64,000 nucleotides of DNA from Blastocatellia bacterium (lineage in GTDB: Bacteria > Acidobacteriota > Blastocatellia > RBC074), in the NCBI GenBank assembly GCA_033763135.1, contig JANRKY010000286.1, positions 3,284 through 67,283 on the forward strand. Direction: 5' to 3'. Within the stretch, counting starts at the first letter, position 1. Each line of letters starts with the position of its first letter. Of this stretch, positions 2,307 through 63,260 are shown piece by piece. The position numbers and the translations under genes are program-made. The notes beneath the pieces were generated by a model. That model saw nothing but the letters and a program-made list of their open reading frames with translations, was not told where the DNA came from and did not search any database.

Positions 2307-3989
2307 TTGTCGCGGAAGCGGAATCAATTGTGGGAGGGCGTGGCGGTTGTGCTTCTGGCCCTGTCTCCGAGTTATCTCTGGCTGGCGTTGGATCGAGACG
2401 CCTTTGGCGGGGACCAGTCGGAGTATGGGACGACGTCCATTACTCTCTATCGGACTCTGACGCAATACCCGCGACAATGGCCGGCGGCCATGTTGCAGGC
2501 GCTGCCTTCGCGTGGGCCGGCGTTGGGATGGATCGGGCAGTTCTTCGTTCCCCTGGGAGAGCGGATCGGGTCGATCGACGTGGCCCTGTTATTGATGATC
2601 TGCCTGAGCCAGACGCTGAGCGTCTGGCTGATGTACCTGGCGATGCTGGCGCTGAGCGGCGGGCGGCGGGGAATCGCCGGGCTGGTTGCGGTTGCGATCA
2701 GCTCGGCGCCGTTGTTTGTCGGGCTTACCCACATGCTTTTCATCGAGCCGCTCCAACTGCTGGCGACAGCTCTCTGTATTTATCTGCTCAGTCGATGTCA
2801 GACGCGGGAGCCCGCGATCGTCCTGGGGCAGTTGCTCCTCCTGGGATCGGTCGCCGCGCTGGTCAAGGCGACGACGCTGCTCTTTATCTGCGCTTATGTG
2901 TCGGCGATTCTGGGGGAATCGCTGAGGCGGGGGCTGCGAGATCGTTCGTGGGGATGGCGGAGCGGGCGCGCCATGGTCGCGTGGGGAATTGGGATCGCGG
3001 CGGCGGCGCTCGCGGTTCTTTGGTACGGAGTGCATCTTCCCGTAGTGATTGCTCATACACGGTCCTCGGCCCTTGGGCCGACCGCCGCGGTATGGGGGAA
3101 GGAAGACACGTTTTTTCATACCCTGCAGTATTGGGGGCGCGAACTTTTCGAGAGCTTTTTTTACCTGCCGATCCTGGCGATCTTTCTTTCGCTGGTGGTT
3201 GTGGGCGTCGTTCTTTGGCGGCGGGGAATTGGAGAGGCTGACGGAAATCCGCGGCGATCCGATTTTCGCGGGGCCGCGCTCGTGTCCGCGGTTCAAATCG
3301 CGCTCACGCTCACGGTCTTCTCCTTTGGGTCGAACAGGATCGACCGGTTCCTGTTGCCTCTCTGGCCCTGCGTTGCGCTGCTGATTGGATGGGGTGTCGA
3401 CGAGATCCGGCAGCCGGGCGTGAAGAAGATGATCCAGGCCGCGTTTCTCGCGCAATTGCTGATCGTCCACGGCGCGATGTTCAAGCTCGTACCGGTCAAG
3501 TTTGCGCCTTCCTATTACGTGTTGCCGTTGCAGCGGGACTTGAAGAAGAAGCGCATCCTGGAAGAGGTGATCAATCGCACATGCGTGGAGCGGAGACATG
3601 AGCGATATCGTGTCGTGGTTGCAATTGATCCGACCATGTGGGGGGACTGGTTTGCGCCCGTGCCGGCGGGCTATGCGGCGGCAAAGCGATATGGCCTGGA
3701 GGCTCCGTGCGGCTTTGATTACGCCGGCGGCGGCTTTTTCGGGGCGAGCCTCGCGGAGACCTGGAGGCTTCTGGCGACGACGCCGCCGCAATATCTGCTC
3801 ATCAATGATCCGTCGAGATATCCCTTGTCTCCCAATGTACTGAACCGATCGCTGACCCCGGACAATCATGCCCGGTTGTTGGAGCTTCTACGAACAGACG
3901 GGTTGTTTGAAGAGCAGCCTCCATTGGGCGTCGATCCCGGGATCCTGGTATTTAAACGCAGGAGTCCGGGCCGGTCCGAGGCGCATTGA
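2307..3989 (+). CDS. Polytopic membrane glycosyltransferase of the GT-C fold (ArnT/PMT/GT39-like). The start codon is uncertain: TTG at 2307 or a downstream GTG.
   Basis: 560 aa ORF with more than 10 predicted hydrophobic helices. The N-terminal loop DRDAFGGDQSEY resembles the GT39/83 acidic loop. No ATG occurs before codon ~97. Confidence 0.5.
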   Translation: MSRKRNQLWEGVAVVLLALSPSYLWLALDRDAFGGDQSEYGTTSITLYRTLTQYPRQWPAAMLQALPSRGPALGWIGQFFVPLGERIGSIDVALLLMICLSQTLSVWLMYLAMLALSGGRRGIAGLVAVAISSAPLFVGLTHMLFIEPLQLLATALCIYLLSRCQTREPAIVLGQLLLLGSVAALVKATTLLFICAYVSAILGESLRRGLRDRSWGWRSGRAMVAWGIGIAAAALAVLWYGVHLPVVIAHTRSSALGPTAAVWGKEDTFFHTLQYWGRELFESFFYLPILAIFLSLVVVGVVLWRRGIGEADGNPRRSDFRGAALVSAVQIALTLTVFSFGSNRIDRFLLPLWPCVALLIGWGVDEIRQPGVKKMIQAAFLAQLLIVHGAMFKLVPVKFAPSYYVLPLQRDLKKKRILEEVINRTCVERRHERYRVVVAIDPTMWGDWFAPVPAGYAAAKRYGLEAPCGFDYAGGGFFGASLAETWRLLATTPPQYLLINDPSRYPLSPNVLNRSLTPDNHARLLELLRTDGLFEEQPPLGVDPGILVFKRRSPGRSEAH

Positions 3990-4019: not shown

Positions 4020-7000
4020 TCAATCGATCATCGCCTCGGCCTGGAGCATCAGCGTGCGATCGATCAGCTCGGCGAGCATGACGTCTGTCAGGCTGCCCCG
4101 CTGGAGCTTGCGATTGAGCAGATGATCCTCGGTCGACGGCAGGTCTTCGTTATAGGTGCGGCGCTTCTCGTAGGAGGCGGTCGGCCCCAGTTTTCGCAGG
4201 ACGGGCTGATAGCTGTCGAAGGCGGCCTGGCTCGTCTCGACGAGACAGCGGGTCTGTTTCTTCTCGGCGATGAAGATATGCAGGCCGCGCTCGAGTTCGA
4301 GCTTCAGAAAGGCCTGCGGGAACTGGATGCCGAGCAGGATGGCGGCGACGCCGTCGATGGGCGCGGCGAAGAACTTCGCCGGCGTCTCGACCGGGATTCG
4401 CTGCAGGGCGGCGACGGTCGGCTCCTTCTTTTTCGAGGGGCGCGCCGCTTTGTGAATGAAATAGCAGAGCGAGATCTTTCGATCATGCAGCTTCGCGTAG
4501 GAATGATAGAGCTCCGCCAGTTCGAAGAGCCGCCGGGGCGATTCGCCATAGATCGCCAGCGTGACGACGTCCGGATTCTTGATGCGAAGCGCGTAGAGAT
4601 CGGTCAGGATGCGGTTCCAGCGGTTGGAGAGGGCATCGACGCGAACGCCGGCCTGCGTGAGATCGATTGTCTTCTTGCCGTAGAACTGGAGGAGCAGGTC
4701 GGCTTCGACCTGATTGATGTCGGCGCAGAAGTCGGCGATCGTCTGGCGCAGTTTTTTCAGCTGCGGGAGGGCTTCCAGACCGGCGAGGTCCTGGGGATTC
4801 TTCCATTTGCTTGTCTGGACGCGTTTTTCCAGGCGTTCGAGCGAGAAGATCTCGTTCTGCAGATTTCGCAGCGCGGCGCTGCGTTCGAGTTTTTGGGCGC
4901 GTCGACGGTAGAGCTGGCAGGACAGGGCGAGCAGCTTCGGCCGGTTGTTCTGCTGTTGGGTCTGGGCGGCGGCGCTCTCGGCGACTTTGCGGGTGTGCCA
5001 GGAGAGATGATCGGCCTCGACGCGAATGGCGATCTCGGCGACCTCGTTCGATTCGACCTGACAGAGTTCGACGGAGAGCGGCGCGACAAGTTCGCGTTCG
5101 ATGGCGCGTTTGAGCGGCCGGGCGCCGTATCGGGGATCGTAGCCGCGGCGTGCGAGATGGCGCGTGACCTCGTCGTCGATCTTGAGAACGACGTCGCGGA
5201 ACCGGAGCCCGTCGCGATGGCGGATCTTTTCGATCTCGCGTTCGGCGATTCGCAGGACCGTCGCTTCGTCGAGCGGGGCGAAGGGAACGATGCGGTCGAT
5301 GCGATTGAACATCTCGGGGCGCATCGCCTGGCGCACGGCGTTGGTGAAGTGTCGCGCGGCGGCCTCGCGCGTGGCATTGGCTTCGCCGAATCCCACGAGG
5401 CCGCGCTGGAACGACTGCGCGCCCAGATTCGACGTCATGATCACGACGGAGTTGGAGAAATCGGCGACGCGTCCCATGGCGTCGGTCAATCGGCCCTCGC
5501 CGAGCACCTGCAGCAGCAGATCGAAGAAGGAGGGATCGGCCTTTTCCAGTTCATCGAGCAGCACGACGGAGAAGGGTTGTTCCCGGACCTGCGCCGTCAG
5601 CAGGCCTTCTTTCCCGAAGACGCCGCCGACGAGGCGTGTGACGGCGAGCGGGTCGGCGTATTCACTCATATCGAACCGGACCATGCGGCCGCGATCCTGA
5701 AACAGAAATTCGGCCAGCGCCTTGGCCATCTCGGTCTTGCCGACGCCCGTCGGGCCGATGAAGAGCAGTGACGCGATCGGTTTTCGCGGTCGCGTCAGGC
5801 CGGCCTTGACGGTCGCCAGCAGATCGACGATCAGATGCACGGCGTCCGGCTGTCCCACGACCCGCGAGGCGAACCACTCCCGCACCGATTCCGGCTCCAT
5901 CCGCTCGTCTTCGCTGAGCAGCAGACGGGGCAGGCCCGTCTCTTTCGAGAAGGCGCGAATGACGTCCTCGGACTGCAGCTCCCGCTCGGTCTCGTGATCC
6001 TGCAGCAGGTTTCGAAGAAAGCGCACGGGGCGCCCCGGGCTGGCCGAATAGCCCGCGTATCGCTGATGGAGCTGATCGATGCGTTCGAGCGCCTCCAGAT
6101 GAATGCGGTCGTTCCCCTTCTCGACGGTGTCGGCGAGAGCGTAGCCGAGCAGGACGCCGCGCCGTCGCTCGGCGGTCGGCTCTTCGACCTTGATCTGCTG
6201 AAAGATGTCGAGCATCTTGCGATTGGCGCGATCGACGTGGGCGGCCTGTTCCGGCGTGCACTCCGCGATCACGAGCGCGTCGCCGCGCGCGATGAAGGGG
6301 CGCAGAAAGTCGGCGATGCCCTGTTCATTCCCGACATATTTTCCGACCTCCATCAGCTCGACGAGATTGCCGAAATAGAGGATCGCCCGCTGTTGCGCGG
6401 CCTCCTGCCAGAGCTGCCGGCATCGCTCCTGCCATTGTCCGAAGCCCGACATGCCCGCGACGAGGCGGGAGCCGTTCGTCGCATAAAAGGGCGTATGGGC
6501 GAACTGAAAATCGGCGCGGCGGCGGATCAGTTCGAAGACCGCCGCCGTCTTTCCGACGCCCGACGGGCCGACCAGCAGGACGCTGCGCGGAGACTTGCCC
6601 GAGAGGGCTTCCGCCATCTGCGCGACGACGGCCTCCATTTCATAGGCGACCGGCAGCGGGCGCGTCGTCAGATCGGTTGCGGCCTCGGCGAGGGCGGATC
6701 GCTTCTTCTCCTCGAACACGTTCTGTCGCGAGGCGATCTGTCGCGGCGTGAGCGCGTCGAGCTCGACCGTGTCCGCGGCGATGCGCAGGTCGATCTCCCG
6801 CTGCAGCCAGACAAGCCGGGCGAGCGATTCGCCGGCGCCCCGGCGCGCAAGCTCCGCGCGAATGTGGGGCGCGATGATCCGGTCGAGCGCCTCCATCGTC
6901 GCCGCTTTGGTCGAGACGATCTCGATGCCGAGCGTCGGCAGAAAGGCGATCGCGGCCGCGTCTCCATGCATCCACCGCACCCCGCGAAAACGAAGCTGCA

Positions 7001-7259
7001 CCGGCGTCCGCCAGAGCGGCGACTTTGCCGGGGGCGCGGCGACGAGCTCGTATTCGAATCGCTCGACCTCTCCAGCATGTCGTCGATGATGCGCATAGAG
7101 CGGCGGCGTGTCGGCCAGCAGCCGCTTTACGTTTTGCTTCAAACTCCCGATCACGCGCGAAGCCCTGCTTTCGACCCGAACCAGTTCGGGAAACAGCAGC
7201 GCCTGCGCCAGCAGGGTCTCGTTCTCAAGCTCGGTTATCAGGGTGATGATCGGCAGCAT
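4020..7259 (-). CDS. Atypical ClpA/ClpB-family double AAA+ ATPase. Unique ~200 aa N-domain, a D1 domain with a degenerate Walker B, an intact D2 domain, and an unassigned ~350 aa C-terminal extension.
   Basis: D1 Walker A is LLVGPSGVGKT. D1 Walker B reads ILYFGNLVELMEVG, where the ClpB consensus is ILFIDELHTMVGAG. D2 is FIGPTGVGKTEMAKALAEFLF, VRFDMSEY, VVLLDELEKA and GARPLKRAIERELVAPLS. The ORF runs to 7337 into the repeat island; the start is assumed to be the ATG at 7259. Confidence 0.75.
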   Translation of the reverse strand: MLPIITLITELENETLLAQALLFPELVRVESRASRVIGSLKQNVKRLLADTPPLYAHHRRHAGEVERFEYELVAAPPAKSPLWRTPVQLRFRGVRWMHGDAAAIAFLPTLGIEIVSTKAATMEALDRIIAPHIRAELARRGAGESLARLVWLQREIDLRIAADTVELDALTPRQIASRQNVFEEKKRSALAEAATDLTTRPLPVAYEMEAVVAQMAEALSGKSPRSVLLVGPSGVGKTAAVFELIRRRADFQFAHTPFYATNGSRLVAGMSGFGQWQERCRQLWQEAAQQRAILYFGNLVELMEVGKYVGNEQGIADFLRPFIARGDALVIAECTPEQAAHVDRANRKMLDIFQQIKVEEPTAERRRGVLLGYALADTVEKGNDRIHLEALERIDQLHQRYAGYSASPGRPVRFLRNLLQDHETERELQSEDVIRAFSKETGLPRLLLSEDERMEPESVREWFASRVVGQPDAVHLIVDLLATVKAGLTRPRKPIASLLFIGPTGVGKTEMAKALAEFLFQDRGRMVRFDMSEYADPLAVTRLVGGVFGKEGLLTAQVREQPFSVVLLDELEKADPSFFDLLLQVLGEGRLTDAMGRVADFSNSVVIMTSNLGAQSFQRGLVGFGEANATREAAARHFTNAVRQAMRPEMFNRIDRIVPFAPLDEATVLRIAEREIEKIRHRDGLRFRDVVLKIDDEVTRHLARRGYDPRYGARPLKRAIERELVAPLSVELCQVESNEVAEIAIRVEADHLSWHTRKVAESAAAQTQQQNNRPKLLALSCQLYRRRAQKLERSAALRNLQNEIFSLERLEKRVQTSKWKNPQDLAGLEALPQLKKLRQTIADFCADINQVEADLLLQFYGKKTIDLTQAGVRVDALSNRWNRILTDLYALRIKNPDVVTLAIYGESPRRLFELAELYHSYAKLHDRKISLCYFIHKAARPSKKKEPTVAALQRIPVETPAKFFAAPIDGVAAILLGIQFPQAFLKLELERGLHIFIAEKKQTRCLVETSQAAFDSYQPVLRKLGPTASYEKRRTYNEDLPSTEDHLLNRKLQRGSLTDVMLAELIDRTLMLQAEAMID

Positions 7260-7602
7260 CTGTAATTGAGAATTGACAATGGAGAATTGATAATTGGCAG
7301 CCGTCCGCCGCGGCGCCCGCCAACTATCAACCATCAATTGTCAAATTTCAATTCTCAACTATCAATTCTCGTCTCTTGCCGCATTTCTTCTCGCGGGTTA
7401 CATTGCCTTTCGCACGAGCAATACATCCCTTTACGAATCAGGCCGGCGGGAACTGGGAATTGAGAATTGAGAATTGAGGATTGAGAATTGATCGTCCGTC
7501 GACATCGATGTCGACGGCCAGGGCTCCACGATCAATCGTCAATTCTCAATTCTCAATTCTCAATTCTCAATTCTCAATTCCCCGGGCGTTTTCGAGGCAT
7601 TC
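7260..7602. repeat. AT-rich island of nested inverted repeats built from AATTGAGA/TCTCAATT octamers. It lies in the divergent promoter region between the AAA+ ATPase gene and the SDR gene.
   Basis: IR-A has imperfect arms at 7263-7297 and 7321-7370. IR-B has 37 nt arms at 7456-7492 and 7538-7574 with 2 mismatches. They flank a perfect 22 bp palindrome CCGTCGACATCGATGTCGACGG at 7496-7517. Confidence 0.85.
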
Positions 7603-8364
7603 ATGAAAATCGAAGGAAATACATTTCTCGTCTCCGGCGGCGCGTCGGGGCTGGGAGGCGCGACATCGACGCTGCTCGCGAAGGCGGGGGCGAATGTCGT
7701 CATCGCGGATCTCAACAGAGACAAGGGAGAGGCGCTGGCGCGCGAGCTGAATGCGGCGTTCATCGAGGCCAATGTGGCCGAGGAGGAGAGCGTGGGGCGG
7801 GCGGTGGCCGAAGCCGTATCGCGCTTTGGCCGGCTCGACGGAGCGATCAACTGCGCGGGGATCGGGGTGGCGGAGAAGACCGTCGGCAAGGACGGGCCGC
7901 ATTCGCTCGCTTCGTTCAAGCGGGTGATCGAGGTCAATCTGATCGGAACATTCAATGTGATCCGGCTGGCGGCGGCGCAGATGGCCGGGCAGGAACCCAA
8001 TGCCGGCGGGGAGCGGGGCGTGATCATCAATACGGCCTCGATCGCGGCCTTTGACGGGCAGATCGGCCAGGCCGCCTATTCGGCCTCGAAGGGAGGCATC
8101 GTCGGCATGACGCTGCCGATCGCGCGCGATCTGGCCCGCACCGGGATCCGCGTCGTGACGATCGCGCCGGGGCTCTTCGATACGCCCTTGCTTGCGGGGC
8201 TGCCCGAGGATGTCAAAAAGGTCCTCGGCGGCCAGGTCCCGTTTCCCTCGCGCCTCGGCAATCCCGCCGAGTTCGCCGCGCTCGCCCGCCATATCATCGA
8301 GAACGAAATGCTCAACGGCGAAGTGATCCGTCTCGACGGGGCGCTTCGCATGCCCCCGAAATAG
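7603..8364 (+). CDS. Short-chain dehydrogenase/reductase of the 3-hydroxyacyl-CoA dehydrogenase type (HSD17B10/FadB2-like).
   Basis: TGxxxGxG cofactor-binding motif ([13 protein letters not shown]). YSASK catalytic motif. 253 aa. Confidence 0.8.
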
Positions 8365-8939: not shown

Positions 8940-9040
8940 GAGATTGCCACAGAGCCACGGAGGCACAGAGTCGAGAGCGGAGAAAATCCGGTTTTTCTGG
9001 CATTCTCCGCGCCTCTGTGGCTCTGTGGCCTGTCTCCCGT
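8940..9040. repeat. Long imperfect hairpin whose arms are tandem CCACAGAG octamers.
   Basis: The left arm GCCACAGAGCCACGGAGGCACAGAG... pairs with the right arm ...GCGCCTCTGTGGCTCTGTGGC. Intergenic, between the NIPSNAP gene and the TPP-enzyme gene. Confidence 0.6.
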
Positions 9041-10679: not shown

Positions 10680-11882
10680 ATGAACTTCGAATATACCGAC
10701 AAGGTCAAATACCTGCAGAAGAAGCTGTCGTCCTTCATGGACGAATACATCTACCCCAATGAAGCCGCGTATTACGAGCAGCTCAACACGGGCGAGCGCT
10801 GGAAGGTTCTGCCCGTCATCGAGGAGTTGAAGCCGAAGGCGAAGGCCGAGGGGTTGTGGAATCTTTTTCTTCCCGAAAGCGAGCACGGGGCGGGGCTGAC
10901 GAATCTGGAATATGCGCCGCTGTGCGAAATCATGGGGCGGGTTCCGTGGTCGGCCGAAGTCTTCAACTGTTCGGCGCCCGACACCGGAAACATGGAGGTG
11001 CTCGTTCGCTACGGCAGCGAAGAGAACAAGGCGCAGTGGCTGACGCCGCTGCTCAACGGCGAGATCCGCTCCTGTTACGCGATGACGGAGCCTGAGGTGG
11101 CCTCGTCGGACGCGACGAACATCTGTTCGAGCATCGTTCGCGACGGCGACTCGTACGTCATCAACGGCCGCAAGTGGTGGACGTCCGGCGCCGGCGATCC
11201 GCGATGCCGCATCGCGATCTTCATGGGAAAGACCGATGTCACCGCGCCGACCCACAAGCAGCAGTCGATGATCCTCGTGCCGATGGACGCGCCGGGCGTG
11301 AAGGTCATGCGCATGCTCAATGTTTTCGGCTATGACGATGCGCCGCACGGCCACGCGGAGGTCCTCTTCGAGAACGTCCGCGTCCCGGCCGGAAACATTC
11401 TTCTCGGAGAGGGGCGCGGTTTCGAGATCGCCCAGGGGCGGCTCGGTCCCGGCCGCATCCACCACTGCATGCGCACGATCGGACTCGCTGAACGCTCGCT
11501 CGAAGCGATGTGCAAACGTGTCAAGCATCGCGTCGCGTTCGGAAAGACGATCGCCGAGCAGGGGACCATCCGCGCGGACATCGCCGCCTGCCGCATCGAG
11601 ATCGAACAGGCGCGCCTGCTGACCCTCAAGGCCGCCTATATGATGGACACCGTCGGCAACAAGGTCGCCCGCGCCGAGATCGCCATGATCAAGGTCGTCG
11701 CTCCCAACATGGCGCTTCGCGTCATCGATCGCGCGCTTCAGGCGCACGGCGGCGGCGGCGTCAGCCAGGACTTCCATCTGGCCAGCGCCTGGTCGCATGC
11801 CCGCACCCTGCGCCTCGCCGACGGACCGGACGAGGTCCATCGCGAGACCATCGCCAAACTCGAATTGAAGAAGTACGAGTAG
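10680..11882 (+). CDS. Acyl-CoA dehydrogenase (ACAD10/11-like, FadE family).
   Basis: 400 aa. [13 protein letters not shown] and the C-terminal catalytic region are typical of the ACAD fold. AAGGAG RBS. Confidence 0.85.
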
Positions 11883-11965
11883 GGACAGGCCCCCGTGCCT
11901 GTCCTCGAATTGAAGAAGTACGAGCAGGGACAGGCCCCCGTGCCTGTCCCCGCGTCTCCCCGTCC
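11862..11965 (+). repeat. Tandem ~45 bp duplication of the ACAD gene's last codons, each copy followed by a GGACAGGC-CCCCGT-GCCTGTCC hairpin.
   Basis: CTCGAATTGAAGAAGTACGAG[T/C]AGGGACAGGCCCCCGTGCCTGTCC occurs twice in direct repeat. The first copy carries the TAG stop. Confidence 0.6.
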
Positions 11966-18246: not shown

Positions 18247-18593
18247 AATCGATCCTGCAGGGCAATCCGCGGCCGCGTCGCGGCGCCGTCGAAATGGGCC
18301 TTCACCGCGTCCGCGAACGCCCGCGCGTCCAGCCCCATCATCGTCGCCGGAAGCGCCGCCAGCCGCGCCTGCGCGCGCGCATGCACGCTCGCCGCTCCCT
18401 TCGCGTTTCCTCGCTCCCGGTGATGCAGCGCCGCCGCGATCTGGATCATCGCATGCAGAAACTCCCGCTCCGCGCCCTCCGCGCGCAGCCAGATCGTCTC
18501 CCAGACCTCGTGGCATTCGAAATAGCGCCCCTCGTTAAAAAGCGCGATCCCCTCGGAATATTCGGCGGCGGCGTTCATCTTCCTGGAACTCAT
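18243..18593 (-). CDS. DUF309-family protein.
   Basis: EGIALFNEGRYFECHEVWETIW matches the DUF309 signature. 116 aa. Confidence 0.65.
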   Translation of the reverse strand: MSSRKMNAAAEYSEGIALFNEGRYFECHEVWETIWLRAEGAEREFLHAMIQIAAALHHRERGNAKGAASVHARAQARLAALPATMMGLDARAFADAVKAHFDGAATRPRIALQDRL

Positions 18594-18606
18594 GATTCAT
18601 GCCAGT

Positions 18607-18730
18607 CCCACAGGTCCCATAGGTCTCATAGGTCTCATAGGTCCCATAGGTCCCACAGGTCCCATAGGTCCCATAGGTCCCATAGGTCCCATAGGTCCCA
18701 TAGGTCCCATAGGTCCCATAGGTCCCATAG
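18607..18730. repeat. Tandem 9 bp repeat (CCCATAGGT)n of 13.8 units that fills the rhodanese-to-DUF309 spacer.
   Basis: The units are CCCACAGGT, CCCATAGGT, CTCATAGGT, CTCATAGGT, CCCATAGGT, CCCACAGGT, eight perfect CCCATAGGT units, and a final partial copy. Confidence 0.95.
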
Positions 18731-18736
18731 CACCCT

Positions 18737-19063
18737 TCAATACCGCGGCACCGACGGATCCACTCGCAGCGACCAGTCGTCGATCCCGCCGAGCAGATTC
18801 TTGAGGTTCGTGAATCCCTGCGCCGCCAGAAACTGGCAGGCGCGATCCGAACGCATGCCGTGATGACAGTGCAGCACGATCTCCTGTTCCTTGTCGCCCA
18901 GTTCCGCCGCCCATTGCATGATCCGGCCGAGCGGACGCAGCTCCGCGCCCGCGATCTGCGCGGCCTGAAATTCCGACGGCTCGCGCACATCGATCAGACG
19001 GATCGTTTCGCCCGCGTCGCGCCGCGCCTTCAACTCTTCCACGGTGATGGTTCCGTAGCTCAT
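18737..19063 (-). CDS. Single-domain rhodanese (sulfurtransferase, GlpE/PspE-like).
   Basis: Active-site loop LHCHHGMRS. 108 aa. Confidence 0.8.
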   Translation of the reverse strand: MSYGTITVEELKARRDAGETIRLIDVREPSEFQAAQIAGAELRPLGRIMQWAAELGDKEQEIVLHCHHGMRSDRACQFLAAQGFTNLKNLLGGIDDWSLRVDPSVPRY

Positions 19064-27679: not shown

Positions 27680-27860
27680 AACGCCTCACGCGAAGGCGCG
27701 AAGATGGGAAGAGCCCGGTCTTCTTCGCGCCTTCGTTTTCGATTCAGAAGCCATGCGAGCCGCGGGATCGAAAAAAGAACGGGAAGATCAAGAAAACTCG
27801 GGAATCGCTTTTCTTTGCGTCTTCGCGGCTTCGCGTGAGGCCCTCTTCTTGCTAACTTTC
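27680..27860. mobile_element. MITE-like ~180 bp element with terminal inverted repeats (copy 1 of 2).
   Basis: TIRs CCTCACGCGAAG...CTTCGCGTGAGG. Internal hairpin CGAAGGCGCGAAGA / TCTTCGCGCCTTCG. The 47598-47800 copy shares the ends, the internal hairpin and conserved internal blocks. Confidence 0.6.
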
Positions 27861-28295
27861 ACCGTATTCCCTGGAAAACGCGTCGAGGGCGCGCTGCAGC
27901 CGGGCGGCGTGCGAGCGTTCGGCGCGAACGAGCGTCTCGAACCATTCGGCGACCTCGTCGAGCCCCTCTTCCCGCGCGGTTCGCGCATAGGCCACATACA
28001 TCTCGGTGAACTCGAAGGTCTCGCCGGCAATCGAGGCGCGCAGGTTGGCGAGGGTGTCGCCGATCGGCTCGCCGGTGACGGGATCGCCGACTTCGCGGAG
28101 AAAGTCGAGATGGCCGTGGGCGTGGCCGGTCTCCCCCTCGGCGATGTCGCGAAACAGCCCGGCGGCGTCGGGATTTCCCTCGATGTCGGCCTGCCGCGCG
28201 AAATAGAGATAGCGTCGATTGGCCTGCGCCTCGCTGGCAAAGGCCTTTTTCAGGTTTTCGTGTGTCTGGCTGCCTTCTAGCTTTGGCATGGTCAT
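27852..28295 (-). CDS. Rubrerythrin-family ferritin-like diiron protein (no rubredoxin domain).
   Basis: [29 protein letters not shown] and a second E-x-x-H half-site. Confidence 0.75.
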
Positions 28296-28305
28296 TCCGG
28301 ATGTC

Positions 28306-28345
28306 CACCCATAAACGAAGACACAAAGGAGACGGCGTCTCCTTT
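28306..28345 (-). terminator. Near-perfect 19 bp inverted repeat followed by TTTAT on the minus strand. Terminator or operator between the iscA-like gene and the rubrerythrin gene.
   Basis: CGAAGACACAAAGGAGACG-g-CGTCTCCTTTGTGTCTTCG. Confidence 0.45.
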
Positions 28346-28381
28346 GTGTCTTCGGGGTATTCGTAAAATTGTCGGCCGAGA

Positions 28382-28711
28382 TCAGGCCGTGAAGGAACTG
28401 CCGCATCCGCATCCGCCGGACGCGTTCGGGTTGTTGAAGGTGAACCCGGATCCCATGACGCTGTTGACGAAGTCGATCTGCACGCCATCGAGATACTGGG
28501 CGCTGAACATGTCGACGAAGACGCGAAGATTGCCGGCCGTGACGACCTCATCGGTGCCCTGCGGGGCCTCTTCGATGTTCATCGCGTACTGGAACCCGGA
28601 GCAGCCGCCCGGAACGACGCGAACGCGGAGACCACCGTCATTTCCGACGTTTTCGGCTTCGAGGAACTTGGCGACTTCGGAGACTGCCGTTTCAGTCAAA
28701 GTCAAATTCAT
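28382..28711 (-). CDS. IscA/ErpA/HesB-family Fe-S cluster insertion protein.
   Basis: C-terminal GGCGCGSSF and an internal conserved Cys. 109 aa. Confidence 0.85.
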   Translation of the reverse strand: MNLTLTETAVSEVAKFLEAENVGNDGGLRVRVVPGGCSGFQYAMNIEEAPQGTDEVVTAGNLRVFVDMFSAQYLDGVQIDFVNSVMGSGFTFNNPNASGGCGCGSSFTA

Positions 28712-28811
28712 AGTGTCATTCTCCTTCTGTTGAATCTGAACGAATCAAATGGTTAATGATGACGGGTGATGATAGCACGGCGAATCGCCGCGTCAACCCG
28801 GTTTACCGCGG

Positions 28812-29931: not shown

Positions 29932-30630
29932 TCATTCGTGTTCTTTCGCGGCGGATTCCATCTTCTCGCCGCAAGAACGCACCAGCCGGTATTCGCACAT
30001 CCGCGAACCCGAGACGATGTGGCACTCCCGCGCGACCTCGCAGGCGAGCGTCTCGCGATAGATCCGCAGCTCCTCTTCGCAGATCTGCGGATGCGAATGC
30101 GCCACCCGCTCCGTCGGACAATTCCGCAGCCGCAGCCGATAGGCCCCATCCTTCATCTTTCGCGCCTCGGCCAGATAGCCCTTCGCGCTCATGATCTTCG
30201 CCAGTCGCTTGACGCACTCGTCGAACTCCAACCCCGCAAACTCCGCCTTCAACTGCCGGATCAACTCGTCCGTGCGCCCGCTCAGGACGCGCTGCAACCC
30301 CTCCTCCCCAAACGTTCGCTGCAACTGCACCAGCACGTCCCGGGCGAACTCGTCATATATCTGGGGAAATAGACAGCAGGCCTTCTGGGTCAGGGAATAG
30401 AGATACCGCGGCCGACCCCGCTCATGCCGCTCGACCTTGTAATCGATCAGCCCGTCGCTTTCAAGCACGCTCAGATGCCGCCGGACATTGACCTTCGACA
30501 CGGCCATCTCCCGCGCCAGCTGCTCCGCGCTCATCGCCCCGTTGTTCTTCAACAGATCGATGATCGCGCTCCGCGGCTCCTTGAGGATATGTTCGACTGC
30601 AGCTCCGGATGTTGACACAACCCGGATCAT
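29932..30630 (-). CDS. Winged-helix transcriptional regulator with a Cys-rich C-terminal domain (SufR/ArsR-like). Candidate Fe-S cluster biogenesis regulator.
   Basis: N-terminal HTH (AIIDLLKNNGAMSAEQLAREMAVSKVNVRRHLSVLE). C-terminal cysteines (NCPTE, QICEEE, CEVARECH, RMCEY). Confidence 0.5.
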   Translation of the reverse strand: MIRVVSTSGAAVEHILKEPRSAIIDLLKNNGAMSAEQLAREMAVSKVNVRRHLSVLESDGLIDYKVERHERGRPRYLYSLTQKACCLFPQIYDEFARDVLVQLQRTFGEEGLQRVLSGRTDELIRQLKAEFAGLEFDECVKRLAKIMSAKGYLAEARKMKDGAYRLRLRNCPTERVAHSHPQICEEELRIYRETLACEVARECHIVSGSRMCEYRLVRSCGEKMESAAKEHE

Positions 30631-35164: not shown

Positions 35165-35249
35165 AAATCATCCACGAAGTTACACGAAGAAACGCGAAGG
35201 GAAGCCTCTTCTTCGTGCCTCTTCGTGTGGCGTTGTGGATGATTTTTCA
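35165..35249. repeat. CACGAAG-family palindromic hairpin element (copy 1 of 3).
   Basis: The arms AAATCATCCACGAAGTTACACGAAGAA... and ...CTTCGTGTGGCGTTGTGGATGATTT pair. Shares its core with the copies at 38044 and 39965. Confidence 0.6.
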
Positions 35250-36580: not shown

Positions 36581-37110
36581 TTTCCCCGGGTGGCGGAGAC
36601 GGCGTATCCCTTCGACTTGTCACCCAGGGCCTTTGAGAGGTTGATGATGGACAGCAGGTCGGTCTGCGCCTGTCGAGCCAGATTCGTATTGAAGACCTTG
36701 CTGTTCTGATGGATCGGATTGTGCGCGAAATCCCAGATCAGTTTCGATAATTGCCGGATCGATTCGTCGAACTTCTGCGGCGTGTCGATTGCGCGGGGGA
36801 CATCTTTCACCTGCGCCATCTCGCCGAGCGCCATCAGCGAGCGCAGCGCCCGGGCGGCCTTGTGGATCGATCGGGCATCCTTGCCCAGCCGCTCCCCCGT
36901 GACCAGACCGGTCTCGTGATCCTGCAGCAGCTTCTGACTGAGGAGTTGAATCTGCTTGAAGTTCTTCTGAAAACTCTGGCGTACATAGGCCCGCTCCCGC
37001 TCGCGGTCCGCCGATCGGGTCTGCGCGGACGACACCGCTGCCGTCGGATGCAGTTCGGATAGGCAGAATAGCAACAGCGCGACGAATGGGAGGTTTCGCA
37101 AAGCGGTCAT
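36577..37110 (-). CDS. Secreted hypothetical protein. Its stop overlaps the start of the MFS gene.
   Basis: Signal-peptide-like MTALRNLPFVALLLFCLSELHPTAAVSSAQ. Lower GC than the neighbours. Confidence 0.4.
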
Positions 37111-37310
37111 CCGATGATCCTCGTGGCATGAATGGATAGCGTGCAGGACTGCAACGCCGCGAGTGTATAGCATCCTTCGACATGATGTACAGGCGACGCG
37201 ATGTACAGGCCGCGCCGGTGACGATCTTTTGAATATGGCTTGCGTAAGAGCGCATGCGTGTGGGATGATAGCCCGTATCCTTCACCCACATTGAACTTCA
37301 GGAGGCCGCA

Positions 37311-38036
37311 TTGAATACAGAGTTGAGCAGGCTCATCTCGCTCCAGGATCTTGATGTCGAAATCAAACGATTACGGGCGGACATCGAATCACTGCCCGAA
37401 CGCCGAGAGGCGCTGGAACGGGAGTTCACCGAATCTGCGAGAGAATATCTCGATTTGAAGGAACAGCTCGATACCGCCAAAGCCGAACGCGCATCCCTCG
37501 ACGCCAACCTCGAAGCCGAACAGCAGAAACATCAGAAATTCAAAGACGATCTCGGAAAGATGACCGCTCCGAATATCAAGGTCTACGAGACGATCATGCG
37601 GGAGATCGAAGTCTCGAAGAAGGCCATCGGCCTCTATGAGACCGAGCTTTTGAAGTTGATGGAGCGGATCGAGAAGCTGGATGCCCAGGTCAGCGAGCGG
37701 CAACCCGCGATCGAGTCGCGTCGGATCGAGATCGATCGGCAGTTGGCCGAATGGGACGCGACGATCGACGCCAATCAGCAGCGGCTCGAAGCGTTGAGCG
37801 TCGAGCGCAAGCCGCTGATCGAGGCGCTCAGCCCGCCGGCCCGGCTCGAATACGACCGCCTTTCCCGCATGAAGTCGGGGCTCGCTCTCGCCGAGGCGCG
37901 GAACTATTCCTGCATGGCCTGTCGCATGAAGATTCGCCCGCAGGTCTACACCGACATCCGCCGCGGCGATTCGGTCATCATCTGCGAAAGCTGCAGCCGA
38001 ATCCTCTATTTCAAGGCCGAAGCGGCGACGAATTAA
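37311..38036 (+). CDS. Coiled-coil protein with a C-terminal C4 zinc ribbon (COG1579 family).
   Basis: Long coiled coil, then CMACRMKIRPQ...CESCSRILY. Confidence 0.7.
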   Translation: MNTELSRLISLQDLDVEIKRLRADIESLPERREALEREFTESAREYLDLKEQLDTAKAERASLDANLEAEQQKHQKFKDDLGKMTAPNIKVYETIMREIEVSKKAIGLYETELLKLMERIEKLDAQVSERQPAIESRRIEIDRQLAEWDATIDANQQRLEALSVERKPLIEALSPPARLEYDRLSRMKSGLALAEARNYSCMACRMKIRPQVYTDIRRGDSVIICESCSRILYFKAEAATN

Positions 38037-38043
38037 GAGATTC

Positions 38044-38135
38044 AGTCGACTCCGCAGAAAATCATCCACGAAGTCACACGAAGAAACACGAAGAAGAGGA
38101 TTCCCTTCGTGCTTCTTCGTGTGACTGCGTGGATG
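38044..38135. repeat. CACGAAG-family palindromic hairpin element (copy 2 of 3), lying between convergent genes.
   Basis: The arms AAAATCATCCACGAAGTCACACGAAGAAACACGAAG and CTTCGTGCTTCTTCGTGTGACTGCGTGGATGATTTT pair. Confidence 0.65.
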
Positions 38136-38227
38136 ATTTTTTAATTGCTTCCGTACGTCGCCACGCGACGTGAACGACTCCATTCAAAAGGCAAATTGCA
38201 GCCGGCGCGCCGGCTGCGATTTGCCTT

Positions 38228-38974: not shown

Positions 38975-39105
38975 TTGATCCTCGATCTGTAGAGTGTGGT
39001 GTGAACGCCGGGAATTGTAGCAGGAATCCGCGTTTGTACGAGGCCGGGCGGCGAAAGAAATTGCTCCGTCCGGGGACCGGCTTGCAATCGCCGCGTCGCG
39101 TGTGG

Positions 39106-39954
39106 ATGATCGAACGCATGAAGAGCATCACGTTGATTCTGTGCCTTTGTCTGTTGCTGGTTGGCTGCGCGTCGACGGGACAGATCGGCGGAAATACGCC
39201 GCAGGGAGCCCGCGGTCGAAGCTACCCGCCGATGGTGGAAGGGACGGCGGAGCGCGAACTGGCCGTGCGCGAAGCCTGGCGGCAGTTCTGCAAGGAGTTC
39301 CGGTTGCCGGAGGCGAAGCCCGATCTGGAGGCGGTTCTGTATACGCCGCGGTCCCTGCCGTTGGAGCTCGCCGGGCGCATTTATCTCAATGCGCGGAGCG
39401 TGGCGTTCGATGAGATGGAGGCGGCGAGCGTGCTTCGGGGCTTCATCGAGCGGGCGCGCGGCGTGCTGACGGGAGAGGGCGCGGCCGCGACGCTCGGCAT
39501 CAAGGATCTCTCTCTGGCGACCTTTACGAAGGATGGCAACTTCTATCGCGCGACCTATCGACAGGTCAACTATCCTTATCCGATCGTCGAGGGATATGGG
39601 GAACTGCGGATCGTCATCGGCAAGGATGGGACGTTGCTGCAGCTCGGAAGCCGCCTGATTCCGGCCTTCGAGCTTCCGGCAAAGCCGGAGATCCAGCCGC
39701 AGGCCGTCGCCGCCGGCCTCGTCGGGCGGGAGTTCAAGTATGCGAGCGTCGCCGGACAGCCAATGAGCTACAAGATCGCCGATCGCGCGGAGATCGCCGT
39801 CGGCGATCCGGTCGTCTATCCGAAGATCGACGGGAAGCGCCTGACGATCCATCTCGCCTTCCCGATTCAGGCGGGCAAGGGCATTACCTGGACCGTCTTC
39901 ATCGACGCGATCACGGGCACGGAGCTGGGCGTGAAACAGAACTTCGCTTCGTGA
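39106..39954 (+). CDS. Lipoprotein of unknown function.
   Basis: Lipobox LLLVGCAS after MIERMKSITLILCLC. The upstream ORF extension overlaps rlmB and is discounted. Confidence 0.5.
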   Translation: MIERMKSITLILCLCLLLVGCASTGQIGGNTPQGARGRSYPPMVEGTAERELAVREAWRQFCKEFRLPEAKPDLEAVLYTPRSLPLELAGRIYLNARSVAFDEMEAASVLRGFIERARGVLTGEGAAATLGIKDLSLATFTKDGNFYRATYRQVNYPYPIVEGYGELRIVIGKDGTLLQLGSRLIPAFELPAKPEIQPQAVAAGLVGREFKYASVAGQPMSYKIADRAEIAVGDPVVYPKIDGKRLTIHLAFPIQAGKGITWTVFIDAITGTELGVKQNFAS

Positions 39955-39964
39955 GAAGCGGGCT

Positions 39965-40060
39965 CTCCACAAAAGAACATCCACGAAGGCACGCGAAGAG
40001 CCACGAAGATAGGACTTATCTTCGTGGCTCTTCGTGTGCCTTCGTGGATGTTCTTTTATG
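39965..40060. repeat. CACGAAG-family palindromic hairpin element (copy 3 of 3). About a 43 bp stem, between convergent genes.
   Basis: CCACAAAAGAACATCCACGAAGGCACGCGAAGAGCCACGAAGATA ... TATCTTCGTGGCTCTTCGTGTGCCTTCGTGGATGTTCTTTTATGG. Confidence 0.65.
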
Positions 40061-40069
40061 GAGGTTCGG

Positions 40070-43601: not shown

Positions 43602-45320
43602 TCAGCGTCGAACGAGCCGGAAATTGTCGACGACGAAATTGCTGCGGACATACCGGTTCTGATTTCCGACGGCGAAGATCGTGATCGGCTGGGCGCCGTC
43701 GGGGATGGTGAAATTGACGCGCAGCGTCGCGCGCTGTCCCGCCGGCGACGCGGAAGAGACGCCCGGCGCTCCGTTATTGAAATTGACTCCGAGCGTGGCA
43801 ATCGTGCCGATGCTCGGAATGACGTCGCAACTCAGTGTGTAATCCCCGGCCGGAAGCGCGATCTCCTGCGCGCAATAATCGACCAGCCGGCGCCCGTTGG
43901 CCTGGAACTTCAACGCATACGCGCCGTCGGTGACGAGCGACTCGTCGTTGACCATGAGGGCGCCGCCGCCCCCGACGAAATAGGTGTAGACCCGCCACCC
44001 GCTGTAATTTCCCGTCTCGAAGCTCGGATTGACGATCACGTCGATCGGCGCGCCTTCACCGCCCGGTGGCGGCGTCGGCGTCGGCGTCGGCGTCGGAGTA
44101 GGCGTGGGAGTCGGCGTTGGCGTCGGCGTGGGAGTCGGGGTCGGAGTCGGGGTCGGCGTCGGGCTCGGAACCGGCGTTGCGGTCGGGCTCGGGCTCGGGC
44201 TCGGGCTCGGCGAGGGGCCCGGATTCGGGCCGCGCGGGCCAATGCGACGGATGGTGTGCGTGAAATAGTCGCTGACGAAGATGTTGCCCTTCGAATCGAC
44301 GGCGACGCCGCCGGGGCGGACAAAGGAGGCCTGCAGGGCCGGTCCGTCGACATGGTCTTCGACGCCGTTGCCCGCGACGGTCGAGACATAGCGGGTCGTC
44401 AGGTCGAGCTTGCGGACCGCGCCGTTATGCCAGTCGCCGATGATGATGTTGCCGTCGGCGTCCCGCGCGACGGCCGTGGCGAGGAAGAACGACGCCTGCA
44501 GCGCGGGGCCGTCCTTCAATTCGAAATTGCCGCTGCCCGCGATCGTGGTCACCTCGCCCGCGGGCGTGACCTGGCGGATGCGGCTGTTGAAGAAATCGCC
44601 CACGATCAGATTCCCCTGCGCGTCGAGACAGAGCTGCGGCGCCGCGCCGGAAAAACTGAAGGAGGCCTGCTCGCCGATCCCGTCCGCATAGCCGTTGTAA
44701 TTGCCCGCAAGCGTCGAGACATAGCGGTTCACATCGATCTTGCGAATGAGGTTGGTGGCGGAATCCAGCACATAGATGTTGCCGGCGTCGTCCACCGCGA
44801 CGCTCGTCGGCCGCGCGAAGCGCGCGGAGAGGGCCGCGCCGTTCTGATTGCCGTACGCGCCGCTGCCGGCAATCGTCGTCACCGCGCCGCTCGGCGCAAT
44901 CTGCCGGATGCGGTTGTTCCCGTAGTCCGCCACGAGAATATTGCCGTTCTTGTCGACCGCCACGCCCGATGGGCCGTAGAACCGGGCCGTCGTGCCGATG
45001 CCGTTGGCGTAGCCCTGCACCCCGCCCGCGATCGTCGTGACGTTGCCCTCCGGATCGATCTTCCGAATTCGCGCCCCCCGAAAGTCCGCGACAATCAGAT
45101 TGTCATCCTTGTCGATCGCCATCCCCAACGGCGCATTGAACCGCGCCGACGCGCCCGGACCGTCCGCGTAGCTGCCCGAAAACGCGCCCCCCGCAAACGT
45201 GCTCACATAGAGCCCGCTCTGCGCCTCGCTCTTTTGCAGAGCTGTCATTGCCAGTATTGAAAGGGAAAGAATCAGGACGAGCGATACGCGGCAGGAAAGA
45301 ACTCTTTGCAACAGATTCAT
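43602..45320 (-). CDS. Secreted NHL-repeat beta-propeller protein with a (Thr/Ser-Pro)n linker and a C-terminal jelly-roll-like domain.
   Basis: Repeated NHL-type motifs (GIAVD, NRIRKI). Linker [45 protein letters not shown]. Confidence 0.75.
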
Positions 45321-45445: not shown

Positions 45446-45545
45446 GCGAAAAAAATGCTGAATGCTGAATGATGAACGATGAATCAAGAGGACGTCGCCG
45501 CTGATTCATCATTCATCATTCATCATTCAGCATTCATCGTTCAGC
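45446..45545. repeat. Long hairpin with tandem GAATGAT/GAATGCT heptamer arms. It abuts the mscS stop codon.
   Basis: GCTGAATGCTGAATGATGAACGATGAATCA ... TGATTCATCATTCATCATTCATCATTCAGCATTCATCGTTCAGC. Confidence 0.6.
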
Positions 45546-47597: not shown

Positions 47598-47800
47598 GCC
47601 TCACGCGAAGACGCGAAGGCGCGAAGCGGAAAGAGGCAGGTCTTCTTCGCGTCTTCGTTTTCGATTCAGAAACCCCGCGAGCCGCGCGGCCAGCGGGGCT
47701 GAAAAGAAAGAACGCGAAGAGGAAGAAAACTCGGAACTTACTCGTCTTTGCGTCTTCGCGGCTTCGCGTGAGGCCCTCTTTTTACAAACTTAATGCCCTT
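47598..47800. mobile_element. MITE-like element with terminal inverted repeats (copy 2 of 2).
   Basis: Shares the TIRs CCTCACGCGAAG/CTTCGCGTGAGG, the internal hairpin and conserved internal blocks with the 27680-27860 copy. Confidence 0.6.
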
Positions 47801-63104: not shown

Positions 63105-63200
63105 AGATTCGGACACAAGGGGAATGGACAGGATGAACAGGATGTTTCAGGATTCACAGGATTGTCCGTCAACGCCGAATCCTGTGAATCCTGAAACATC
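63105..63200. repeat. Perfect 38 bp inverted repeat with tandem CAGGAT(G/T) arm units.
   Basis: GGACAGGATGAACAGGATGTTTCAGGATTCACAGGATT - 14 nt loop - AATCCTGTGAATCCTGAAACATCCTGTTCATCCTGTCC. Confidence 0.75.
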
Positions 63201-63260
63201 CTGTTCATCCTGTCCATTTTTCACCGTCTGAATGTTGCCGTCTCTGATTCGGAACGGACG

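Follow-up and report, generated by a model that had tools for sequence, protein, structure and literature searches.

The 64,000-nucleotide stretch of DNA analysed here (the window) comes from a metagenome-assembled genome (MAG) of the Blastocatellia (Acidobacteriota), the product of its AAA+ gene being 100% identical to MAG protein P0001. An AT-rich island in it is bounded by the start codon of a ClpB-like AAA+ gene (7259, minus strand) and that of an SDR gene (7603, plus strand) and is therefore intergenic. It consists of two palindromes of tandem heptamers, inverted repeats A and B (IR-A and IR-B), with a short unique segment between them, and it belongs to a known class of heptamer-repeat palindromes of the Xanthomonas and Geobacter type. 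We favor, at a probability of roughly 45%, the reading that slippage-prone heptamer palindromes surround a unique core promoter and occupy the leaders of the two genes, and that their effects would be generic rather than specific. A dedicated locus-specific operator is not supported for IR-B. The features of the island are as follows, with the evidence for each in brackets.

7257-7259, minus strand: ATG of the ClpB-like AAA+ gene (1079 aa, 4020-7259) [P0001 match, Pfam, alignment]
7263-7370: IR-A, a degenerate heptamer palindrome abutting the AAA+ start codon [sequence, Tandem Repeats Finder (TRF), inverted-repeat search]
7263-7297: IR-A arm proximal to the AAA+ gene, five heptamers TAATTGA GAATTGA CAATGGA GAATTGA TAATTGG [sequence; TRF; inverted-repeat pairs I5, I8, I14]
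7298-7319: GC-rich centre of IR-A with a 10-bp palindrome, CGCCGCGGCG, at 7306-7315 [sequence; apical stem in predicted folds]
7320-7370: IR-A arm distal to the AAA+ gene, seven TCAAnnn heptamers (nnnTTGA on the minus strand) [sequence; TRF; inverted repeats]
7323-7351, minus strand: promoter-like TTGAAA-N17-GATAGT in the IR-A distal arm, the candidate AAA+ promoter [promoter-like scan; conservation]
7376-7406, plus strand: unique core TTGCCGCATTTCTTCTCGCGGGTTACATTGC (TTGCCG-N17-TACATT), the candidate SDR-side promoter [conservation in relatives]
7455-7583: IR-B, a near-perfect heptamer palindrome [sequence, TRF, inverted-repeat search]
7455-7492: 5' arm of IR-B, GGG + AATTGAG x3 + GATTGAG + AATTGAT [sequence; TRF; inverted repeats]
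7460-7488: promoter-like site TTGAGA-N17-GAGAAT inside the IR-B 5' arm [promoter-like site scan]
7496-7517: perfect 22-bp palindrome CCGTCGACATCGATGTCGACGG, the apex of IR-B [sequence; 9-bp apical stem in predicted folds]
7532-7583: 3' arm of IR-B, TCAATCG + TCAATTC x6 + CCC [TRF; inverted repeats]
7594-7605, plus strand: start of the SDR gene (7603-8364), Shine-Dalgarno-like GAGG at 7594-7597 and ATG at 7603-7605 [sequence; Pfam adh_short]

The repeat unit of the island is AATTGAG, with a period of seven. TRF returned this period in all four arms at 4.7-6.7 copies each: AATTGAG x4.7 at 7264-7296, x6.7 at 7321-7367 and x5.0 at 7457-7491, and TCAATTC x6.0 with 100% identity at 7539-7580. The initial annotation had proposed an 8-bp period based on the octamer AATTGAGA and about 12 motif copies; neither holds, and near 24 heptamer units are present, five plus seven in IR-A and five plus seven in IR-B. 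The best IR-B arms (7455-7491 against 7546-7582) have the 37 nt given to them earlier, but they contain one mismatch rather than two (97% complementary). The island had also been described as almost entirely symmetric, whereas the approximately 79 bp at 7371-7449 are free of the heptamer repeat and include the conserved core at 7376-7406. Other elements of that first description were borne out, namely the AT-richness (GC of 0.48-0.50 across 7200-7599 compared to 0.63 over the whole window), the presence of two inverted-repeat units, and the SalI-ClaI-SalI palindrome, in which the SalI sites occupy 7498-7503 and 7510-7515 and the ClaI site 7504-7509.

Both palindromes are predicted to fold far better than shuffled sequence. 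For IR-B, the RNA folding energies are -82.5 kcal/mol on the plus strand and -78.3 kcal/mol on the minus strand (z = -11.5 and about -11), and the DNA value is -51.9 kcal/mol (z = -12). For IR-A the RNA values are -36.1 and -50.2 kcal/mol, respectively (z = -5 and -7). The two are ordered alike, 5'-AATTGAG-like ... CTCAATT-like-3', with convergent arrays on opposite strands. When the 13-mer AATTGAGAATTGA was searched with up to two mismatches, the window gave 21 matches, of which the island accounts for 19; 0.93 would be expected, and none of 100 shuffles reached 21.

Comparison with related genomes separated the two palindromes. The syntenic relatives are L121, with an AAA+ protein 78% identical, and L122/L123 (74%), all of which carry the SDR, NIPSNAP, TPP enzyme and acyl-CoA dehydrogenase genes. 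A metagenome scan with an AAA+ profile added one useful orthologue, L124 (57% identical), along with more distant ones (38-44%) whose upstream regions are unrelated. IR-A occurs at the same position in both L121 and L122. Its units in L121 pair nearly one-to-one with those of the window, apart from single-unit insertions or deletions, while in L122 the proximal arm is now (AACCATC)3 and the distal arm is degenerate. Double changes were seen at six pairs of IR-A, a number of little weight given that it comes from three sequences and that periodic repeats align ambiguously. IR-B, on the other hand, is missing at the orthologous position in both relatives: L121 has a Polyketide_cyc2 gene there, and L122 an ACAGGAT-type array plus a CACGAAG-type hairpin. 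The regulatory proposal had looked to conservation of the orthologous intergenic region, and this was found for IR-A but not for IR-B. The 22-bp palindrome of IR-B was found in none of the 203 fetched loci and is thus specific to this copy. Another gap of the same gene cluster shows a comparable turnover, as the NIPSNAP-TPP gap is 21 nt long and empty in L121 but carries a hairpin in the window (CACAGAG units) and in L122 (CGGA units). In L121 the Polyketide_cyc2 gene (3275-3814) separates the AAA+ gene from the SDR gene, and in L124 it stands beside the AAA+ gene (upstream of 3001); it is missing from the window (7407-7602) and from L122, where repeat hairpins fill that space.

What is truly specific to this locus is the 31-bp core at 7376-7406, together with the putative promoter embedded in IR-A. 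The core is the same in L121, L122 and L123 but for six spacer bases, its invariant part being TTGCCGCATT-N6-CGCGGGTTACATTGC. It occurs once in the window, among the 203 loci only L121-L123 contain its 15-mer, and a metagenome scan with the pattern TTGCCGCATTN6CGCGGGTTACATTGC gave no matches. Its sequence suggests a promoter directed toward the SDR gene, whose leader would start near 7413. On the AAA+ side, TTGA(T/A)A-N17-GATAGT in the sense of that gene is shared by the window, L121 and L122, its -10 element ending 54-63 nt before the ATG, and L122 retains the site despite its decayed heptamer periodicity. In L124 the AAA+ gene has no heptamers upstream, but TTGACT-N17-TATGCT stands about 67 nt before the ATG. 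Since the site is conserved in three genomes and the L124 promoter stands at a similar distance, we infer that the IR-A distal arm carries the AAA+ promoter, with transcription probably starting near 7315. The initial annotation had viewed the island as an operator array controlling both promoters. The island does hold the likely promoters of both genes, but a dedicated operator is unsupported, as IR-B is absent from the relatives and the array recurs in unrelated loci.

Altogether six promoter-like sites were counted in the island compared to 0.5 expected, an excess that arises because an array of TTGAnnn heptamers automatically yields TTGAnn-N17-GAnnnT (23 = 3x7+2). The same sites could be read as a promoter-plus-leader cassette, in which a (TTGAGAA)n arm would provide overlapping inward sigma-70-like promoters, the opposite arm would form a (CUCAAUU)n leader, and one palindrome would serve both sides. 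This is consistent with the excess itself, with the conservation of the IR-A distal -35 and -10 elements in three genomes at the same distance as the canonical promoter of L124, with the observed polarity 5'-AATTGAG...CTCAATT-3', which is the one required, and with the CTCAATT arrays that abut start codons. We nevertheless regard it as highly improbable, given that the spacing comes automatically with a TTGA heptamer, that solitary phage arrays occur in the CTCAATT sense only, so that their promoter-like strand faces away from the gene, that the arrays are common in Bacteroidota, whose promoters differ, and that the CACGAAG and ACAGGAT families have no promoter-like reading.

According to the reading favored here, generic palindromes around a unique core promoter, IR-A would be an old, decaying palindrome of the form (nAATTGA)5 - GC-rich centre - (TCAAnnn)7, and IR-B a young, near-perfect one of the form (AATTGAG)5 - 39-nt centre - (TCAATTC)6-7. 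Both are members of a widespread extragenic class in which two arrays of 7-10-nt units face each other over a variable spacer. Replication slippage would create such palindromes and resize them by whole units, and some families may in addition spread as small dispersed copies, piling up in intergenic DNA to the edges of genes. The distal arm of IR-A would give the AAA+ gene its sigma-70-like promoter TTGAAA-N17-GATAGT. The proximal arm, which reads (TCAATTn)5 in the mRNA sense and stops 3 nt before the ATG, would form a (UCAAUUn)5 leader tract next to an AUG without a Shine-Dalgarno sequence. As part of the SDR leader, IR-B would be transcribed into a highly stable stem-loop ending 20 nt before the AUG, leaving the GAGG at 7594-7597 free; both the GAGG and the ATG lie outside the IR-B stem, and the start context ATGAAAATCGAAGG is kept in L121 and L122. 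The overall effect would be a generic one, of a structured 5' end or insulator and a Shine-Dalgarno-independent leader, and would involve no site-specific operator.

The start of the AAA+ gene at 7259, proposed in the initial annotation, is supported by P0001 (1079 aa, named 'AAA family ATPase'), whose first residue falls at 7259 and which is 100% identical to the AAA+ product, and by M1, which is invariant in alignment A1 of 20 orthologues. The longest open reading frame (ORF) begins at TTG 7337 and passes through IR-A; this extension is an artefact, because all frames of CTCAATT are free of stop codons. The protein contains the Pfam domains AAA_2, ClpB_D2-small and AAA, with about 200 N-terminal and about 330 C-terminal residues free of Pfam matches. 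Its source-named homologues above 40% identity come from Acidobacteriota, mainly Blastocatellia, and most matches are unnamed metagenome sequences.

Class membership rests on arrays of at least three units of 7-9 nt, convergent on opposite strands, intergenic and variable in copy number, all of which were found here as in the published inverted pairs. Heptanucleotides are the most over-represented class of long simple sequence repeats in prokaryotes; they are mostly intergenic, and slippage has been proposed for their origin (Mrazek 2007, via PMC4679880, PMC4692102). That work, as relayed by these two papers, describes direct arrays, and inverted pairing, polarity and gene-boundary position do not form part of the relayed description. 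A close counterpart is found in Xanthomonas campestris and X. axonopodis, in which near 185 GGGAATC arrays per genome include 70-75 as convergent inverted pairs (Rehm et al. 2015, PMC4692102). These arrays are intergenic, have typically about four units, and as pairs are able to form stem-loops or cruciforms; their positions are mostly conserved across species, while length and sequence vary (PMC4692102). Both GGGAATC and AATTGAG units contain GAAT, and the GAAT arm is on the 5' side in both. However, GGGAATC is G-rich and has been studied as a G-quadruplex former, whereas AATTGAG cannot form a G-quadruplex, and the Xanthomonas figure of about 185 is genome-wide whereas the genome of the island was read over 64 kb.

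A second counterpart is formed by the putative 'global regulator' sites of Geobacter metallireducens, which are opposite-strand pairs at variable distance, each with 3-5 tandem 7-9-mers (Aklujkar et al. 2009, PMC2700814). Their units, GTTGCTYN, TCTCCGTS[Y] and MTYCTGA, are intergenic, for example between proB and proA, and absent from the sister species (PMC2700814). TCTCCGTS (reverse complement SACGGAGA) is close to the CACGGAG units at 8946 in the window and at 2205 in L122, and MTYCTGA (reverse complement TCAGRAK) to the TCAGGAT units at 63123. In contrast to the island, where none was seen, insertion sequence (IS) elements stand at a fixed distance from some Geobacter sites, and AATTGAG is not among the Geobacter units. 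A third case is TAACTGA, which forms direct repeats in marine Beggiatoaceae, in Cyanobacteria and in Bacteroidetes (MacGregor 2015, PMC4679880). Like AATTGAG, this is an AT-rich heptamer with TGA and a patchy distribution across phyla, and its arrays are located a few nucleotides upstream of start codons without a canonical ribosome-binding site; they were proposed to act at the post-transcriptional level, possibly bound by S1, Csp or CsrA (PMC4679880). TAACTGA differs in its unit and in that its sets are almost always direct, with one indirect among about 170 sets.

The AATTGAG unit itself is widespread. Exact (AATTGAG)3 was found in at least 120 loci in a scan of species-representative genomes, with hosts among Cyanobacteria, several classes of Acidobacteriota, Bacteroidales, Chloroflexota and Planctomycetota as well as Clostridia, Cloacimonadota, Saccharimonadales and Desulfobacterota. 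The related MAG Blastocatellia SSF51 has at least three such loci (L002, L017, L033). The motif that drew the first description is far above chance, with 19 of 21 matches in the island, but its arrays lie beside unrelated genes in distant phyla and are not locus-specific. In viral contigs, (AATTGAG)3 occurs in 61 stretches, whereas three heptamers with an equal base composition gave 13, 14 and 6; AATTGAG is therefore a favored unit, though not the only one. The number of units varies between near-identical flanks, with four in L003 and three in L014, and five versus four and four versus five in related phages. In phage contigs L229/L204 (IMGVR_UViG_3300026159_000618), L214, L218 and L243, with GC of 0.53-0.59, (AATTGAG)3-5 is present in nearly every intergenic gap. 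Solitary phage arrays are all in the CTCAATT sense and end 0-12 nt before the Shine-Dalgarno-less ATG of the next gene.

This distribution bears on the proposal that the island is an array for an oligomerising DNA-binding protein with one heptad per subunit, either a dedicated repressor or a nucleoid-type 'global regulator', which would act on both divergent promoters, possibly by looping or cruciform formation. The omega (ribbon-helix-helix) repressor of inc18 plasmids (pSM19035; WATCACW heptads) and MetJ, with its met-boxes, act at promoters on arrays of 7-8-bp units, direct or inverted. In these systems the array is contiguous and specific to its locus, with the regulator gene encoded alongside. 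In the island, by contrast, the arms are 22-46 nt apart, no such regulator gene is nearby and the motif is not locus-specific. A heptad-operator precedent exists in omega of pSM19035, and the 7-bp spacing of the TTGA/TCAA core of IR-A is kept in two genomes, with arrays flanking the core promoter. The paired 7-9-mers of Geobacter, moreover, were annotated as putative IHF/HU sites (PMC2700814). However, IR-B is absent from both relatives, its 22-bp palindrome has no second copy among the 203 loci, and no ribbon-helix-helix or other small regulator gene adjoins the island or was found among the approximately 25 genes scanned, where the only helix-turn-helix protein found is located 22 kb away at 29932-30630. 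Furthermore, the genes beside AATTGAG arrays in distant phyla and phages are unrelated, the arrays mostly sit at start or stop codons, not at promoter distance, and many units and periods (7-10 nt) coexist in one genome. We consider a protein-binding array very unlikely.

The orientation of the arrays is far from random. In the fetched loci, an inverted partner in the order 5'-AATTGAG...CTCAATT-3' lies downstream of 30-41 of 125 arrays and upstream of 4-5. Based on crude ORF calls, arrays within 25 nt of a start codon are in the CTCAATT sense in 26 cases and in the opposite sense in five; in viral contigs the numbers are 24 and 7. Arrays within 15 nt after a gene end are in the AATTGAG sense in 32 cases against 6, a count that is partly inflated, since the AATTGAG unit supplies TGA whatever the frame; in twelve genes the stop codon overlaps the first repeat unit. 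Hairpins whose stem measures 20 bp or more were surveyed in the window and in the 203 loci (L001-L203); 70 have periodic arms, of which 58 have a period of 7. Across the periodic set, G outnumbers C on the 5' arm in 61 cases versus 8 (p = 3e-11), and in 37 versus 6 when AATTGAG is set aside, while the 40 non-periodic hairpins are evenly divided (15 versus 15). One idea for this polarity, offered as no more than that, is that early synthesis of the G-rich arm might hide the regularly spaced YC-rich arm from Rho.

The island is one of many such elements in the window, where about ten further hairpins have periodic arms with 7-10-nt units. Those located in the inverted-repeat survey are listed below, and the genes flanking periodic hairpins in the window are ordinary housekeeping genes.

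8946-9029: periodic-arm hairpin
27683-27841: periodic-arm hairpin
35165-35245: periodic-arm hairpin
38058-38140: periodic-arm hairpin
39965-40063: periodic-arm hairpin
45454-45541: periodic-arm hairpin (AATGMTG heptamers)
47598-47774: periodic-arm hairpin
63123-63218: periodic-arm hairpin

The elements at 27683-27841 and 47598-47774 are copies of about 160-180 bp that align over their full length, the 115-119-nt spacer included, and have two and three repeat units, respectively, thus differing by one CGCGAAG unit. Each has CGCGAAG 8-mer terminal arms and a conserved, internally palindromic interior, and lies directly 3' of the stop codon of a plus-strand gene. In look they resemble MITEs (miniature transposable elements with inverted repeats) or repetitive extragenic palindromes (REPs), and no transposase was seen. 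The CACGAAG family has three copies in the window (35165-35245, 38058-38140, 39965-40063) and one in L122 (3655-3735). Its hairpins contain three 10-nt units, share the conserved ends AAAATCATCCACGAAG ... CTTCGTGGATGATTTTT, show compensatory differences between copies, and have A-tract and T-tract flanks like those of bidirectional terminators. The hairpin at 63123-63218 is built of ACAGGAT 9-10-mers and is complementary at 41 of 41 positions; its family is present at other L122 loci as well (458-555, 10687-10760), and its core resembles both the Geobacter 'class 3' unit (MTYCTGA, reverse complement TCAGRAK) and CsrA-type GGA sites.

Much of this would also be expected if the palindromes were neutral or selfish by-products, generated by slippage and arm-correcting template switching or by MITE-like spread, and tolerated here without function. 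IR-B is lineage-specific and in relatives the same gaps contain other elements, the repeat units are many and unrelated, dispersed near-identical copies differ by one unit, unit number varies among close relatives, and the neighbors are housekeeping genes. We find this account unlikely all the same. It does not sit well with a polarity of 61 versus 8 in periodic hairpins against 15 versus 15 in non-periodic ones, with arrays that tightly abut start codons in one orientation, or with the persistence of IR-A, TTGA cores intact, over approximately 25% protein divergence, and neither target-site duplication nor transposase was found.

Several observations weigh against the favored reading of slippage-prone palindromes with generic effects. 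In two genomes, every IR-A unit retains its TTGA core. The AATTGAG unit was found nowhere outside the island within the 64-kb window, and across phyla it recurs at 4-10 times the level of same-composition controls. The retention of TTGA and the cross-phylum recurrence together hint at a specific constraint beyond slippage, for example a binding partner. If the AAA+ promoter lies in the distal arm of IR-A, the AAA+ mRNA would lack that arm and IR-A would form no RNA hairpin. When strand folding energy and G-U pairs were compared with the direction of transcription, the outcome was mixed, with about seven hairpins better in the sense strand and about four in the antisense strand. The crude ORF calls behind the adjacency counts, and the TGA content behind the gene-end count in particular, also belong on this side.

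Several other identities were considered for the island and rejected. An origin as a MITE was dismissed because no flanking direct duplication was found at IR-A or IR-B, their centres are mutually unrelated and that of IR-B is unique. Transposon ends were rejected since the ORFs between distant convergent AATTGAG pairs (L084, L074, L104) encode lysozyme, TrkA/TrkH, DprA and a poly(A) polymerase-family enzyme, and no transposase. The periodic hairpins are similar to REPs, bacterial interspersed mosaic elements (BIMEs) and MITEs in being small dispersed extragenic palindromes between co-directional genes, with some multi-copy families (27683/47598; CACGAAG), and RNA stem-loops would be a plausible REP-like role for them. 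The island, however, has no GTAG/CGTC head, its arms are tandem repeats of 35-50 nt, and the spacers of AATTGAG-type elements are not conserved; a REP/BIME assignment was rejected on these grounds. No RAYT/Y1 transposase was present among the window proteins scanned. The exclusion of a CRISPR array, a terminator or an IS in the initial annotation agrees with our results. A terminator scan of 7150-7700 found no terminator-like site and the element lies between divergent starts, the Pfam scan of window proteins showed no transposase near the island, and nothing supported a CRISPR array, an IS or a replication origin. Rfam 15 gave no family match at gathering score anywhere in the window. GAAUUGA matches the universal 16S rRNA segment at about 911-917, presumably by coincidence, given the chance expected of a 7-mer and the burial of that region in the ribosome.

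The genes next to the island encode, by Pfam, the AAA+ ATPase, the SDR, a NIPSNAP protein, a TPP enzyme and an acyl-CoA dehydrogenase. Directly after the acyl-CoA dehydrogenase gene, a 45-bp unit is present twice at 11859-11949 (97% identity), each copy with a GC-rich hairpin, GGGACAGGCCCCCGTGCCTGTCC. A direct tandem array, (GTCCCATAG)x14 with 95% identity and no inverted partner, fills 18605-18730, the gap that separates two minus-strand genes, one for a rhodanese (stop at 18737) and one for a DUF309 protein (start near 18593). A (CGGCGT)n hexamer/12-mer repeat of about 23 units at 44070-44212 lies within the sequence that codes for an NHL-repeat protein (43602-45320, minus strand). Three segments of about 1-1.4 kb each (27842-28811, 36620-38057, 38975-39964) lack any ORF with the elevated third-position GC that characterizes this genome.

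For the locus itself, the result is mainly corrective, in that a striking symmetry is no bespoke operator. For annotation, stop-free CTCAATT arrays artificially extend ORFs, as at TTG 7337. Three regularities are added to what was described for such repeats: a heptamer shared by distant phyla and phages, a fixed polarity, and abutment to start and stop codons. They turn the vague notion of 'slippage-prone repeats' into testable hypotheses on leaders and insulation. The fixed polarity, the CUCAAUU tract 0-25 nt before starts in place of a Shine-Dalgarno sequence, and the AAUUGAG tract at stops with TGA in three frames raise the prospect, which we consider unlikely, that AATTGAG arrays and periodic-arm palindromes are a functional gene-boundary element across phyla and not slippage debris. 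If so, a conserved partner such as ribosomal protein S1 or a cold-shock-domain protein (7 nt per domain), or avoidance of Rho, would be involved, and the arrays would have a role in Shine-Dalgarno-independent initiation and transcript insulation in Acidobacteriota, Cyanobacteria, Bacteroidota, Chloroflexota, Planctomycetota and their phages.

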